Source: Octopus vulgaris (lineage: Eukaryota). From it: a DNA stretch of 64,000 nt. Position 1 is the first letter of the stretch; each line of letters begins with the position of its first letter. The position numbers and the translations under genes are program-made. Positions 12,617 through 58,007 of this stretch are shown here, piece by piece. The stretch lies in assembly GCA_951406725.2 (NCBI GenBank), contig OX597816.1, positions 164,672,001-164,736,000 on the forward strand. Direction: 5' to 3'. The notes under the pieces were generated by a model. The model did not search any database and had not been told where the DNA came from. It saw only the letters and a list, made by a program, of their open reading frames with translations.

Positions 12617-13453
12617 CATATATTTTATTTATTACACTATTGTATGACTGAGCGCCTTCGCGTCGATTCGATTCGATTCGTTCCGTTTCGTTTCTTCTTC
12701 TTCTCCCAGTACAGTTTTTATATATAATTATGACGCGAAACCCTATACCTCTTTGCTTAACCTTCCCTTCTCTCCCTTTCTCTCTCTCTCTCACTCCTCC
12801 TCATCTCTCTCACAGCCGTTTGTCTTCCTCTATCTCTCTCTCTCTCTCACTCCTCATCTCTCTCACAGCCGGCCAAATACTTCCTTTTGCATGCGGCCTT
12901 CTAACTGTAAACACACGGTTTTCTTGCGCTCCTTGAATCTCTCCTCGTCTAGGCAAAAAAGGCCCTCTTTGGTTGTTTTCTTGTGTGTTTTTATTTCTTG
13001 TATTGTATTTTTTTGTAATTGTATTTTTATTTTGTATTTTATTTTGTATTTTATTTTGTAATTTTATTTGTATCGTTTTTACGTCCTGTTTGTGTCACAT
13101 TTTGTTATTTCCTTGTTTTTACCCCTCTGCGAAGTAATTTCCTTTAATTTCTTCGCAGGAAGGGCTAGTTCGACGAGTCGTGTTCTGTCCTCACCTTCGA
13201 AACACGCTGGAGTTGAACTAGGGACAGCTGATGAAGGGGATTTTTCCTTGTGTAGTTTGTCTAGTACTCTGTTTTTTCTTTGTAAAAAAAAGGTTCGTTC
13301 CATGCTTGTTTTTACGTTCTCGTTGAGTTCTGCGTCTATTTGTGGTGTCCTGTACTCACGTATATATATTTATATATGCATGTATATATACATGTAGATG
13401 TAGGTACGTACATATATGTATATATGTATGCATATATTTTATTTATTACACTA

Positions 13454-15828: not shown

Positions 15829-16813
15829 AGTCCTCTTGTTCCACCACCCATACATTTTTTATGGAGCGAATTTTACTCACAAAGTTTTCATCAATCCGAG
15901 GTTATTACGCAGTGGGAGCGAACCCGGAACCACATAATTAGCACTGGGCACAACCCATCGCCCATCTTTATACCCAATGACGACCACGTAAACAGTCAAA
16001 TATTAGGAAGTCCGTACGTCATAAACCACTCCTCGGTCCCTGCATGGCCAAAACATTTTAAATCTCAACGACCAAGTCCTCTTGTTCCACCACCCATACA
16101 TTTTTTATGGAGCGAATTTTACTCACAAAGTTTTCATCAATCCGAGGTTATTACGCAGTGGGAGCGAACCCGGAACCACATAATTAGCACTGGGCACAAC
16201 CCATCGCCCATCTTTATACCCAATGACGACCACGTAAGCAGTCAAATAGTAGGAAGTCCGTACGTCATAAACCACTCCTCGGTCCCTGCATGGCCAAAAC
16301 ATTTTAAATCTCAACGACCAAGTCCTCTTGTTCCACCACCCATACATTTTTTATGGAGCGAATTTTACTCACAAAGTTTTCATCAATCCGAGGTTATTAC
16401 GCAGTGGGAGCGAACCCGGAACCACATAATTAGCACTGGGCACAACCCATCGCCCATCTTTATACCCAATGACGACCACGTAAGCAGTCAAATAGTAGGA
16501 AGTCCGTACGTCATAAACCACTCCTCGGTCCCTGCATGGCCAAAACATTTTAAATCTCAACGACCAAGTCCTCTTGTTCCACCACCCATACATTTTTTTA
16601 TGGAGCGAATTTTACTCACAAAGTTTTCATCAATCCGAGGTTATTACGCAGTGGGAGCGAACTCGGAACCACATGATTAGCACTGGGCACAAGACATCGC
16701 CCATCTTTGCACCCAATGACGATCACGTAAGTAGTCAAGTAGTAGGAAGTCCGTACGTCATAAACCACTCCTCGGTCCCTGCATGGCCAAAACATTTAAA
16801 ATCTCAACGACCA
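15829..16813. repeat. 246 bp tandem repeat, 4 copies
   Basis: agtcctcttgttccaccacc recurs at 15829, 16075, 16321 and 16567; units nearly identical. Confidence 0.95.
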
Positions 16814-26385: not shown

Positions 26386-26803
26386 ATATAATTAGTGAAT
26401 GGAAGAAATGGAGTTGAACGAAGATTGTACAGAATTCCTTTTATTACATTCTACACATGTTTCAAAGGCCACAATTTTCCAAATTCTGATTAAATAAGGA
26501 TACCATATTGCAGCTTTCTCTTCAGGAAAAACCAGGAATTACGTTGATTTCAACGTACATTGATAAACAGTTTACCCATGGGCTCTTAAGGAGCGTCCTC
26601 GTTCGAATTGCTTTGCTGCGCCTCTGTTTTGTTTTGTTCTGACAACGTAATTCCTGGTTTTTCCTGAAGAGAAAGCTGCAATATGGTATCCTTATTTAAT
26701 CAGAATTTGGAAAATTGTGGCCTTTGAAACATGTGTAGAATGTAATAAAAGGAATTCTGTACAATCTTCGTTCAACTCCATTTCTTCCATTCACTAATTA
26801 TAT
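26386..26803. repeat. 161 bp perfect inverted repeat with 96 bp spacer, one HHR per arm
   Basis: Arms 26386-26546 and 26643-26803 are reverse complements; right arm runs into (TA)n. Confidence 0.9.
26661..26740 (+). ncRNA. Type I hammerhead with long helix II and palindromic helix III (mirror copy 26449-26528, minus)
   Basis: UUC-CUGAAGA-G-AAAGCUGCAAU..AUUGUGGCCUUU-GAAA-CAUGUG-UA-GAA; helix I only 3 bp. Confidence 0.6.
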
Positions 26804-26902
26804 ATATATATATATATATATATAGGTAAACAGTAAAAATAATTACAGACATGGACAAGAACATGAAACGCCACAGAGACGACACAAGAACCACAGGACG
26901 GG

Positions 26903-27049
26903 ACATTCGAAGCCCTCAGTCATCAGTCAAGAACCAGATCATCTTAGCAATTTCGGCTGATTAATCTTGAGATTGCTCCGATATGGGCAGCCCGCCAAGG
27001 AAAATCTAAGCCAAGTGCATTAGATCCCCTGGAAGAAAGCTTCGAATGT
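26903..27049 (-). ncRNA. Non-circularly permuted hammerhead ribozyme, complete copy (second subfamily)
   Basis: 15 bp closing helix; hairpin; II GGCUG/CAGCC; P0 CCAUAUC/GAUCUGG; III AGCAAU/AUUGCU; AUC site; I UCAAGA/UCUUGA; CUGAUGA at 26926-26920; lies in (TA)n-flanked element 26824-27520. Confidence 0.8.
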
Positions 27050-27516
27050 ATACAACACGAGGACGGAAAACGAACGAAGTACACGAACAAAAATACAGAA
27101 TACGTGACAACAATAAGAATACAAAAACGTAAAAACAATAACGGTAAAAATAAAGTATAAAAAATAAACAACAAAACACAACCAGGACGTAGGACAAGGG
27201 TCTTTCGACAGGACGAATTGAGTATGGGGCTGGCTTATGAAGTTGTGCCTAATGGCCACAGGGAGACGAACAAGTACGTGTTGCTTCAGCGGCTGCTGGA
27301 ACGAAAAGAGCGCTCAACAGCGGCTAGCGGTCACGTGAGAACAAAAGACAAGAGAAAGGGACAGATGAAAAGAGAGAGAAGGTGGACGAGGGAGGAGAAG
27401 AAAGAGACAGATCGAGGGGGCTGGAGGTGAGAGAGATAGAGAAACGTAGAAGGGGGGGGGGGAAGACGGATGGAGAGGGAAAGAAAGGAGGGGGAATAAG
27501 GGAGGAGAGAGAGAGA

Positions 27517-27599
<83 letters not shown>

Positions 27600-35049: not shown

Positions 35050-35115
<66 letters not shown>

Positions 35116-35198
35116 GGTCCCGGGTTGATTCGGGGTTAACCACAGTAAATAAGGTACTCAATACATAGTAGAGTAAAATTAATTTATTATATAGAAGG

Positions 35199-35249
35199 AG
35201 CTTCTACAGGACTAGAACTGTTTCATTCAAGAGAAATCTTCAGGAAGCT
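35199..35249 (-). ncRNA. Type I hammerhead ribozyme
   Basis: AGCUUC-CUGAAGA-U-UUC(UCUU)GAA-U-GAAA-CAG(UUCUAGUC)CUG-UA-GAAGCU. Confidence 0.75.
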
Positions 35250-35398
35250 GCTACATCAGGATGGTCGAAGAAGAACGATCTCCATCGAATTCTTTTGATG
35301 AACTCATCAGTCCGTCTAATGAGGGCTTTTTGGTACTGTTTCCTTGGTGGGATAGTAATGTTCTTCAGGGAAGTGTCGAGGTCGATTCTTGTCAGCAT
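35240..35398 (-). pseudogene. 52-codon N-terminal fragment of a Penelope-like retroelement ORF
   Basis: MLTRIDLDTSLKNITIPPRKQYQKALIRRTDEFIKRIRWRSFFFDHPDVAAS*; resembles the SLKNIP..Y...LI....FIKR.RW..FF N-terminal motif I recall from PLE RT proteins. Confidence 0.6.
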
Positions 35399-35585
35399 TT
35401 TTTCTTGGTGATGGTTATAAGGGCACTAGGGTGTGCTAGGATATGTAGGTCCCGGGTTGATTCGGGGTTAACCACAGTAAATAAGGTACTCAATACATAG
35501 TAGAGTAAAATTAATTTATTATATAGAAGGAGCTTCTACAGGACTAGAACTGTTTCATTCAAGAGAAATCTTCAGGAAATCTTCA

Positions 35586-35640
35586 GGAGCTTCCTGAAGA
35601 TTTCTCTTGAATGAAACAGTTCTAGTCCTGTAGAAGCTCC
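35586..35640 (+). ncRNA. Type I hammerhead ribozyme (inverted copy)
   Basis: GGAGCUUC/GAAGCUCC helix I, CUGAAGA, GAAA, ACAG/CUGU helix III, GUA site. Confidence 0.75.
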
Positions 35641-35740: not shown

Positions 35741-35800
35741 AAATACAAAATGGGACAACAAAACATCCAGATAGACGATACAAAGAAAGCAAGGACGGGT

Positions 35801-35943
35801 CATTCGAAGTTTTCTTTCCTCAGTCAAGTACCAGATTATCTTCGCCATTTCGGCTGATTATACTTGAGATTGCTCCAATCTGGCCAGTCCCAAGGGAAAA
35901 CTAAGCTAAGAGCATTAGATTCCTTGGAAGAAAGCAGCGAATG
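35801..35943 (-). ncRNA. Non-circularly permuted hammerhead, complete with mismatches
   Basis: Closing UUUCUU/AAGAAA; hairpin CCAAGG/CCUUGG; II GACUG/CAGCC; P0 CCAGAUU/AAUCUGG; III AGCAAU/AUGGCG; AUC site; I UCAAGUA/UACUUGA; CUGAGGA. Confidence 0.75.
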
Positions 35944-35992
35944 TATACAAAAACAAGGACGGAAAAAACGGACGATGTTACACAAATACAAT

Positions 35993-38024: not shown

Positions 38025-38086
<62 letters not shown>

Positions 38087-38143
38087 CAGCCGAAATCTGC
38101 GATGAGGGATCAGTTTCTGACTGAAGAATGAAGGCTTTGAATG
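38087..38143 (+). ncRNA. 3' half of permuted hammerhead
   Basis: CAGCC-GAAA..CUGAAGA..GAAGGCUUUGAAUG; homologous to the 26.9 and 35.8 kb copies; truncated at (TA)n. Confidence 0.6.
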
Positions 38144-38200
38144 ACCCGTTTGTCTTTTTGTTCGTCCCTTCGTGTATTTCACGTTATTTATTTATGTAAA

Positions 38201-40144: not shown

Positions 40145-40190
40145 GACACCTGATGAAGGCTGGAGGGTATATCAACCGAAACGTTGTGCT
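40145..40190 (+). ncRNA. Minimal type I hammerhead
   Basis: GACAC-CUGAUGA-A-GGCUG..CAACC-GAAA-CG-UU-GUGCU; homologue of 57962-58007. Confidence 0.6.
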
Positions 40191-48613: not shown

Positions 48614-48696
48614 TAGCACGAGTGGGGTTCGAACCCACGCGGACATTCGTCCATTGGAACTTAAGTCCAACGCCTTAACCACTCGGCCATCGTGCT
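48614..48696 (-). tRNA. tRNA-Leu-TAA: tRNA-Leu (anticodon UAA)
   Basis: 83 nt cloverleaf: AGCACGA/TCGTGCT acceptor, TTGGA-CTTAAGT-TCCAA anticodon arm, long variable arm, GGTTCGAACC, followed by a T9 terminator. Confidence 0.96.
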
Positions 48697-48819
48697 GCTG
48701 TCTGCCAAGCGGCGAAATAAGTAGTTTTGTTCTGTGATAGCTAAAGATTTGGAACAGAATTCTTCTCAAGTAAACAAATATATATTATTTCGGCTAGAAA
48801 AAATTTTAAAAAAATGACT

Positions 48820-48902
48820 TAGCACGAGTGGGGTTCGAACCCACGCGGACATTCGTCCATTGGAACTTAAGTCCAACGCCTTAACCACTCGGCCATCGTG
48901 CT
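48820..48902 (-). tRNA. tRNA-Leu-TAA: tRNA-Leu (anticodon UAA), identical second copy
   Basis: Identical 83 nt sequence followed by a T7 terminator. Confidence 0.96.
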
Positions 48903-49934: not shown

Positions 49935-50342
49935 TACTCTTTTACTCTTTTACTTGTTTCAGTCATTTGACTGTGGCCATGCTGGAGCACCGCCTTTAAT
50001 CGAGCAACTCGACCCCGGGACTTATTCTTTTTGTAAGCCCAGTACTTATTCTATCGGTCTCTTTTGCCGAACCGCTAAGTAACGGGGACATAAACACACC
50101 AGCATCGGTTGTCAAGCAATGCTAGGGGGACAAACACAGACACACATACACACACACGCTTATATATATATACATATATACGACGGGCTTCTTTCAGTTT
50201 CCGTCTACCAAATCCACTCACAAGGCTTTGGTCGGCCCGAAGCTATAGTAGAAGACACTTGCCCAAGGTGCCACGCAGTGGGACTGAACCCGGAACCATG
50301 TGGTTGGTAAACAAGCTACTTACCACACAGCCACTCCTGCGA
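49935..50342 (-). mobile_element. SINE family A, full length
   Basis: Reverse complement of family A. Confidence 0.85.
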
Positions 50343-50344
50343 CA

Positions 50345-51720
50345 CACACACACCTCCCGTTTCAGTAAAGTCATGGAGCGCATTGTGAGGAAAAGACTGA
50401 TTGAGTTCCTTGCGGACAATTACCTGCTTTCTGACACCCAGGAAGGAGCCCGGGAAGGAGCTGTCTTACACAGCTTCTTTGACACTATGGCCGAATCAAT
50501 TAATGAACTGCTCAAAATGTGGATGTGGTATAACCTCGACTTTGCGAAGGCACTTGACAAGATCGACCATGGAATGATATACCACAAAATACGGGGACTC
50601 GGCATCACCGGTAACGTCGGAGAGTGGCTGCATGATTTCCTAAAGGACAGGACCCAAACTGTAGCAGCCAACGGAGCTCTCTCCACAGAGACACCAATAG
50701 TGAGTGGAGTACCCCAGAGCATTGTGCTGGGGCCACTGCTTTTCGTGGTAGCCCTATCGGTTATGCCATCAGTGACAGAGGCAGCCATGCTTACCAGCTA
50801 TGCCGACGACACAGAAGTCGCACAGTCAGTCAAGGAAACCTCTGATGCTACGCTCTTGCAGAAAGATCTAGATACATGGGCTGATGATAACAACATGCAA
50901 TTTAATGCAAGTAAATTCCAGGCCCTCCGCTACCAGTTAAGCACTGCTCAGGAATCACGACATCAGTACATTGGACCATGTGAAGCAACGATCCCAGCAT
51001 CAAATACGGTCCTTGATCTTGGAACAGAAATGAGCAACAATGCCCCATTTCACACACATATCAACAAAAATGATAGCAGTATCCAGAAGACTGGTCGGTT
51101 GAATTCTGAGAACCTTCTGGACGAGGGACCAAGAAGCTATGATGTCACTATGGAAGTCATTTATCCTCAACCGACTGGACTACTGCTCTTAGCTATGGTC
51201 ACCTTATACTATAAGGATGATAGCAGAGCTTGAAGCAGTCCAGCGACATTACACATAGAAAATTGCATCAATGGAACGACTGAGCTACTGGGACCGATTG
51301 AAAGAGCTACGACTCTTTTCCCCGGAAGGAAGGCGGGAGAGGGATGTAGTGATATATATATGGAAGATACTGGAAGGCCTGGTACCAAACTTTGGAATAA
51401 AGAGCTATACAAGACCACGAACAGGACGTCACTGTGCTGTCTCCACTGCTTCATCTCGGGCAAGGACGATGTACTGCAATAGCTTGGTTTCAAGGGCCCA
51501 CAGCTGCTTAACTGTCTGCCGAAACATCTGAGGAGCCTCCATGGAGTGGGTGTAGACGTTTTCAAACACGAACTTGACCTCTGGCTCATCGAGATCCCAG
51601 ATGAGCCAATATTTAGGCAGGAAACTGAAAAGAGGGCAGTAACTTCGAACTCCTACCTTCACCAAAAGCCGCTCCGACAAAGGCGAAGGCGGTGCTCCAG
51701 CACGGCCACATAAAAAAATA
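50345..51720 (+). mobile_element. 5'-truncated CR1/L2-group LINE (RT domain, frameshifted)
   Basis: DFAKALDKIDH, SGVPQSIVLGPLLF, YADDT, WADDNNMQFNASK, LSYWDRLKELRLFS.E.RRER; A-rich 3' end. Confidence 0.9.
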
Positions 51721-57961: not shown

Positions 57962-58007
57962 GACACCTGAAGAAGGCTGGAGGGTATATCAGCCGAAACG
58001 TTGTGTT
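57962..58007 (+). ncRNA. Minimal type I hammerhead
   Basis: GACAC-CUGAAGA-A-GGCUG..CAGCC-GAAA-CG-UU-GUGUU; AACGUU palindrome. Confidence 0.7.

Follow-up and report, generated by a model that had tools for sequence, protein, structure and literature searches.

Can a hammerhead ribozyme be assembled when its catalytic strand and its stem II are supplied by far-apart segments of the RNA? The question is raised by a 147-nt segment (26903-27049, minus strand) of a 64,000-nucleotide stretch of the Octopus vulgaris genome (GenBank assembly GCA_951406725.2, contig OX597816.1, positions 164,672,001 to 164,736,000), hereafter the window. The segment lies in a non-coding element of a small family that we call family A; other families carry further letters. 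A hammerhead is made of three blocks, S, G and C, which have been taken as uninterruptible, so that six orders are possible, and in all known alignments CUGANGA is joined to stem II with at most one or two inserted bases (Eckert et al. 2023, PMC10085705). In the window copy the block order is S-G-C, but block C itself is split: the 5' strand of stem II is found 62-66 nt upstream of CUGAUGA. A closing helix (Pc) and a hairpin (Ph) separate A9 from G10.1 and bridge the two, in such a way that the strand after A9 pairs just upstream of the hairpin, and the hairpin then runs into G10.1. One extra base between A9 and G10.1 is tolerated in hammerheads. With the CUGANGA-stem II block divided in this way, the split-core arrangement matches none of the six published permutations. 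In the direction of the minus strand, the parts are the following:

27519-27599, no strand: (TA)40 tract at the truncated 5' end of the element
26825-27519, minus strand: family A retroelement copy, non-coding, retrozyme-like and 5'-truncated (about 695 of 780 bp), with 98.7% identity to the 780-bp array unit over 695 nt and the fixed 3' end in common
27050-27518, minus strand: non-coding body, CT-rich and then T-rich
27035-27049, minus strand: closing helix (Pc), 5' strand
26995-27032, minus strand: hairpin (Ph) running into stem II; the family A linkers are 2 nt on either side
26988-26992, minus strand: stem II 5' strand, with G10.1 first at 26992, upstream of the remaining core
26980-26986, minus strand: 5' strand of helix P0, which corresponds, by comparison with PMC10085705, to the helix of type SGC through which stems I and II interact
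26965-26977, minus strand: block S, with the stem III 5' strand, the AUC site (C17 = 26971) and the stem I 5' strand; predicted cut 26971/26970
26946-26959, minus strand: block G, with the stem II 3' strand, GAAA and the stem III 3' strand
26934-26940, minus strand: P0 3' strand
26920-26932, minus strand: first half of block C, with the stem I 3' strand and CUGAUGA
26903-26917, minus strand: closing helix (Pc), 3' strand, starting 2 nt past A9
26825-26902, minus strand: 3' tail up to the fixed end
26799-26824, no strand: (TA)13 tract at the fixed 3' end of the element; TATATA closes the unit itself

When the letters were read again, each of the six helices stood on the minus strand where an earlier, sequence-only reading of this DNA had placed it, and so did CUGAUGA, GAAA and the AUC site. 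The closing helix (27049-27035/26917-26903) forms 15 of 15 pairs, with a duplex energy of -20.9 kcal/mol, and the hairpin (27032-26995) is bulged, at -12.7 kcal/mol. Stem II (26992-26988/26959-26955) has 5/5 pairs and is followed by a 1-nt linker to P0, while stem III (26977-26972/26951-26946) and stem I (26970-26965/26932-26927) have 6/6 pairs each, with C17 at 26971. GAAA starts at 26954, CUGAUGA occupies 26926-26920, and both the U16.1-A15.1 pair and the NUH site (AUC) are present. For P0 (26986-26980/26940-26934), the earlier proposal of CCAUAUC/GAUCUGG was right in position and in six of the seven pairs, and had passed over one U-C mismatch; family B has 7/7. From 5' to 3' the strands follow as closing strand, hairpin, stem II 5', P0, stem III 5', C17, stem I 5', stem II 3', GAAA, stem III 3', P0', stem I 3', CUGAUGA and closing strand. 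A strict descriptor matched twice in the window versus once in 60 block-shuffled windows (3.84 Mb), and the 147-nt segment folds at z = -2.74. No ribozyme family of Rfam matched in the window region.

The architecture was compared across 24 representatives, 10 from this genome and 14 from metagenomic contigs of Naiads, which are autonomous Penelope-like elements. A helix parser with automatic register was wrong for four of them (A, E, G and a Naiad relic), and its choice of the best register inflates the pairing fractions; for this reason fixed-geometry tests were used for stem II plus P0 and for Pc plus Ph. The upstream stem II and P0 form 259/264 pairs, compared with 218 +/- 3 in shuffles, and the zero-gap Pc plus Ph arm forms 218/240, compared with 184.5 +/- 3.5 (181-197 in slid registers). 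Core positions are all retained, G10.1-C11.1 is present in 23/24, and the linker between stems I and II measures 5 nt in the window copy and 1-6 nt among the representatives. Changes on both sides of a helix were also observed. In five related metagenomic Naiads, 5/6 stem II pairs changed on both sides and pairing remained at 100% (five-sequence alignment; two Naiad clades were misaligned by MAFFT when nine sequences were used), and among 11 family A/B copies ten pairs did so, a result found in 0/500 shuffles. The claim that structure is kept while sequence varies is borne out by these 24 representatives, with their unlike helix sequences and compensatory changes. The helix sequences do differ from those of the copy at 13.1 kb, with which the only BLASTN alignments are low-complexity pieces of 24-57 nt that lie outside the ribozyme. 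Selection on the fold, as claimed earlier, is likewise supported, though it most likely acts on the mobile element and not on the window copy for the host. A textbook zero-gap split-core ribozyme was seen in family H (L045:2100-2215), whose G/C-rich stems are closer to metagenomic Naiads than to families A-G.

Naiads have been reported to lack canonical hammerheads, and eight half cores flagged in them fitted no descriptor (Craig et al. 2021, PMC8557442). We read the 54 Naiad consensi of that paper by eye, at the sites of four CUGANGA spellings, and the split form was found in 11 of them; motifs interrupted by a line end escape such a reading. For six, the next header gives a name (Bfor, Amil, Aacu, Anas, Obim and Ovul), and the other five, assigned by file order only, are probably from Clytia, two Morbakka, Darwinula and a squid. 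Two of the 11 are imperfect, with a short stem I (Bfor) or a mismatched stem II (the squid-like one). Six consensi in the nematode part of the file, three of them named Nbra1-3, present by eye the order C-S-G with block C intact, a type known from two sequences only (PMC10085705). As an observation apart, in an arthropod Naiad (PMC8557442 File S5, part 17) long insertions seem to set the S, G and C blocks apart, over some 200 nt in all.

Among 80 metagenomic contigs with Naiad-type open reading frames (ORFs; GIY-YIG was N-terminal in both full-length proteins scanned), 17 carry a ribozyme, 14 of them split and three of type CSG (L264:2822, L300:3530 and L309:2968), all in sense and 3' of the reverse transcriptase (RT) match. 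The controls on these contigs gave 0 antisense, 0 reversed and 1 complement match. Rfam detected no ribozyme in 20 Naiad contigs although eight of them carry permuted forms, so its models do not cover the split or permuted topology. In a quick version of the RT tree, split-form ribozymes occur in several separate Naiad subclades and the sequence of this genome is a long branch; the tree supports no order of events. In the octopus genome, Naiad RT remnants were found about 1.4-1.6 kb upstream of a split-core ribozyme, within one and the same element copy, at six distinct loci. For the published octopus Naiad, one motif gave 192 exact matches in this genome, with 0 for the control, and another, taken from the 5' part of its ORF, had no match there. 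The split-core hammerhead likely fills the gap of the "missing" Naiad hammerhead. As for the half cores flagged by Craig et al., they are predicted from their sequences to fold into complete permuted ribozymes. It should also be mentioned that a twister-P5-like match (E 4e-4, below the gathering score) lies in the 3' region of a hammerhead-free Naiad contig (L246:3076-3135). From this match, some Naiads may use another ribozyme.

The element that carries the window ribozyme corresponds well to the non-coding element of about 700 bp between (TA)n tracts described earlier: it covers 26825-27519, between (TA)13 and (TA)40. The full unit has 780 bp, its longest ORF is 68 aa, and it ends in TATATA, 152 nt 3' of the predicted cut. 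This 3' end is fixed, with (TA)n or the next unit following in 28 of the 29 junctions read (overlapping loci included), and the 5' ends are variable through truncation. The array that we call C13 holds five full units with 0-2 base differences plus one truncated unit, has the ribozyme in every unit, and begins at its 5' end with an inverted duplication of the flank; its period is exactly 780, and the junctions have no scar at the cut site. A 73-nt core has 231 exact copies in the genome. A genome search with the window element returned 3131 candidates, of which the 40 scored were 99-100% identical. A looser descriptor found eight intact cores in 600 kb of unselected sequence (five of them from 200 kb beside the window) versus two in the reversed control; as a rough figure, the whole group would have about 10^4 copies in the 2.8-Gb genome. 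Two assembled contigs cross a head-to-tail junction; their source runs were only guessed to be RNA, and tandem DNA would give the same. Contigs of this kind carry no information on RNA ends and do not bear on cleavage. The family, as represented by window positions 26830-27300, was also seen in contigs from sequencing runs of three other organisms, and is therefore older than this species or common to close relatives.

If some template RNAs start at the cut, it is there that truncated insertions are expected to end. We tallied the 5' junctions of family A by hand among the matches listed (C1-C9), with two anchors that cover slightly different subfamilies. Among 37 distinct junctions that abut TA, 32 were located at +1 to +10 and five in the 21 nt upstream; six of the 32 lie exactly at +1 and 24 at +3 to +10. 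A control anchor of the same range gave 18 junctions over +11 to +41. On these hand tallies, the two junction contrasts have p = 4e-9 and 1e-11, and the six junctions at +1, compared with about 1.2 at other T positions, have p = 0.0015. The accumulation of junctions at the predicted cut or just 3' of it is an indirect and suggestive sign of cleavage in vivo, and no proof.

We consider it quite probable that the segment is a self-cleaving S-G-C hammerhead in which the A9-G10.1 link has been replaced by a closing helix and a hairpin, and that it is carried by a 780-bp (TA)n element copied by a Penelope-like RT. According to this model, Pc and Ph would stack as one duplex whose nick presents A9 and G10.1, and the core would then fold as in a hammerhead, with stems I and II held together by P0. 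G12 and G8 would catalyse cleavage after C17 (26971), as in the known hammerhead mechanism (PMC11300833). Transcripts across tandem units could in this way give 780-nt monomers. After the cut, four helices (Pc, II, P0 and III) would still tie both ends, favouring re-ligation to a circle; canonical animal retrozymes do yield circular RNAs (PMC7229834). A Penelope-type endonuclease would nick (TA)n and the nick would prime on the TATATA of the unit, 152 nt 3' of the cut. Reverse transcription could run off the cut end of a linear RNA, giving short copies that end at +1 to +10, or alternatively continue round a circle, giving arrays. The ribozyme may have been inherited from Naiads, and the present candidate for a helper would be a young Neptune-like element of this genome. 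Such a Penelope-like family, probably Neptune, was observed in dozens of copies (L343:2521-5600, L347:2485-5640). It has RT, a C-terminal GIY-YIG, open frames of 753-782 aa and 3' ends at (TA)n, as well as a type I hammerhead-like motif in which U3 and A8 replace C3 and G8; its tie to the 780-bp unit is the (TA)n target alone.

Beyond this locus, and with somewhat less assurance, we favour the idea that Naiads across animals carry an active hammerhead of a seventh topology as their "missing" ribozyme, with type CSG in nematodes and replacement or loss elsewhere, and that here it drives the spread of about 10^4 retrozyme-like copies via circular RNA. As part of that idea, the seventh topology would bring the catalytic CUGANGA strand and stem II from distant RNA parts and join them by an arm resembling a four-way junction.

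Several results weigh against these proposals. The pseudoknot-free minimum-energy structure (ViennaRNA, whose model leaves pseudoknots outside) retains the closing helix only and no core. Taken alone, the window copy has 10/11 pairs in the upstream stem II and P0, which is not significant (p = 0.17), and 8/10 in the zero-gap outer domain, equal to the null; the case therefore rests on the cross-family comparison. The family A junction is the loosest, with its 2-nt linkers, and P0 has the U-C mismatch. The 24 representatives were picked by a descriptor requiring stems I and III, and five are closely related, so the pairing figures are not independent probabilities. No hammerhead was found in 51 of the 68 Naiad contigs having at least 300 nt of 3' sequence. 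Among the matches listed of three protein searches, all Naiad ORF matches in this genome were broken, with no intact Naiad, and BLASTN of the 780-bp unit against 152 Naiad-related loci matched only inserted copies of the same small families. Both the broken frames and the lack of homology to Naiad 3' regions count against a direct Naiad parent. The dispersed copies lie 1-7 bases from the array unit, so the homogeneity of the array is no proof of one circular template. As for the junctions, 18 of the 32 fall on +8/+10, positions at which joining is helped by TA microhomology, and two further ones, with a short re-copied piece before +1, have an alternative reading at -4.

The alternative that survives best differs from our explanation only at the circularisation and reverse-transcription steps. 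The ribozyme would cleave, and the arrays would come from read-through transcripts, from template jumps between linear monomers or from later unequal crossover, and not from circular RNA. We think this unlikely, although it deserves attention: the sequence at +1 is re-copied or jumped in three junctions, Penelope-like elements generally form partial tandems (PMC8557442), and for the present element a circle is a prediction. It sits poorly with an array whose period is exactly 780 and whose junctions are scar-free at the cut site, and with the circular RNAs of canonical animal retrozymes (PMC7229834). Distinctly less probable is that family A has kept the fold and lost cleavage, or that the fold is a non-catalytic recognition signal for the RT, the pile-up of junctions being due to TA microhomology. 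The loose family A junction with its mismatched P0, the 231 copies that read through the cut site, the AT-like bases under 18/32 junctions and the lack of a hammerhead in most Naiad contigs, which implies that Naiads can do without it, all fit such a loss of function. Yet the core positions are all kept in the 24 representatives, with G10.1-C11.1 in 23/24, other AT-like spots (-14 to -11, +18 to +21 and +29) receive 0-5 junctions each, and +1 receives 6-8 compared with a mean near 1.2 at other T positions.

We also weighed an ordinary type SGC hammerhead, with stem II formed from the bases right after CUGANGA and the upstream match being incidental. Families C, D and F have a G-rich stretch one base past A9 with four possible pairs to the stem II 3' strand, but in families A and B only 0-2 of 5 pairs can form there. 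Across the 24 representatives, a stem II partner directly after A9 pairs at only 0.30-0.41, no better than partners taken from other families, and the stretch past A9 pairs instead with the strand before the hairpin. This alternative is very improbable. Chance pairing in a repeat-rich genome, which the two reversed-sequence matches of the looser descriptor (versus eight real ones in 600 kb) and the lack of significance of some helices in the window copy alone might suggest, is hardly credible, and for the whole architecture it is ruled out by the pairing tests, the covariation, the strand and position specificity in the Naiad contigs with their controls, and the same order in several phyla.

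The split-core hammerhead has relatives among known ribozymes. With the non-circular type SGC (HRIMA-1; PMC10085705) it shares the S-G-C order, the short stem I-II linker, the core and a helix linking the far sides of stems I and II, here P0. It differs in that block C is split and the motif ends inside the inserted closing helix. Furthermore, HRIMA-1 is known from metatranscriptomes and not from genomes of known organisms, whereas the split form sits in animal genomes. The cyclic order is the same as in type CSG (PMC10085705), but the window form is opened between A9 and G10.1 and not between blocks. In the pseudoknot (PK) hammerhead (Zhan et al. 2024, PMC11300833) the core is also held within a pseudoknotted scaffold; there the pseudoknot replaces helix II, beside the A9-G12 and G10.1-C11.1 pairs, and the available parts of that paper describe no upstream stem II strand or two-helix arm. 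In the literature searched, including passages of PMC3088659, PMC10162972, PMC7936874 and PMC13725137, with thin coverage of subscription papers, we found no hammerhead with a domain between A9 and G10.1. Neither did this literature report a permuted hammerhead in Naiads, which does not establish its absence from print.

As to the element, retrozymes without long terminal repeats (non-LTR retrozymes; Cervera and de la Pena 2020, PMC7229834; Li et al. 2026, 10.64898/2026.07.22.740005) are likewise non-coding, have a hammerhead in each unit, are found as dispersed monomers and arrays, and are linked to Penelope-like elements. Animal retrozymes have indeed been argued to derive from Penelope-like elements, in a search limited to type I hammerheads (Li et al., 10.64898/2026.07.22.740005). 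However, the non-LTR retrozymes carry canonical or minimal type I hammerheads, whereas the window unit is S-G-C, split and bound to (TA)n, and circular RNA has been demonstrated for them, while the window unit is known here from DNA sequence. The window ribozyme would work like the hammerhead of a non-LTR retrozyme, yet it belongs neither to type SGC, where block C is intact, nor to the classical retrozymes, where the hammerhead is of type I. With Naiads (PMC8557442) the unit shares the (TA)n target, the 5' truncation, the tandem and inverted 5' structures, and the same ribozyme architecture near the 3' end. It differs from them in having no ORF (no GIY-YIG/RT frame) in its 780 bp and no detectable homology to the Naiad 3' regions tested; family A is also very young, in contrast to the decayed Naiad copies found in this genome.

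The assumption of Eckert et al. that CUGANGA and stem II are inseparable, on which the six permutations are based, is broken by the split form. Their non-circular forms came almost only from environmental sequence, and the split form is abundant in animal genomes. If the split form cleaves, ribozyme searches have overlooked a whole topology, and the A9-G10.1 step would be a natural site for domain insertion.

The window contains other copies of the same architecture:

13122-13239, plus strand: family C copy, same architecture with unrelated sequence and a zero-gap junction; predicted cut after 13184
35800-35945, minus strand: family B copy, 80% identical to family A, with point changes in stems II and III
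38085-38200, plus strand: related copy cut off about 10 nt 3' of the predicted cleavage site

The identity of the 35.8-kb copy to the window copy (80%) extends across 222 nt by BLASTN. Hammerhead cores in canonical order (CUGANGA, hairpin, GAAAC) were observed at 40149-40185 and 57966-58002, both on the plus strand, the second with a stem II sequence identical to that of family A; they are likely relics of Penelope terminal repeats. At 35110-35640, a direct repeat of about 140 bp is followed by a perfect 40-bp inverted repeat, flanked by TA tracts, in a tandem and inverted structure of Penelope-like type. Finally, the window has a 246-bp unit in four tandem copies with 98% identity (15829-16813), a 206-bp tandem duplication holding two identical tRNA genes with anticodon UAA (48614-48902, minus strand), and a 379-aa frame with a reverse transcriptase fragment of the long interspersed element (LINE) type (50094-51233, plus strand).
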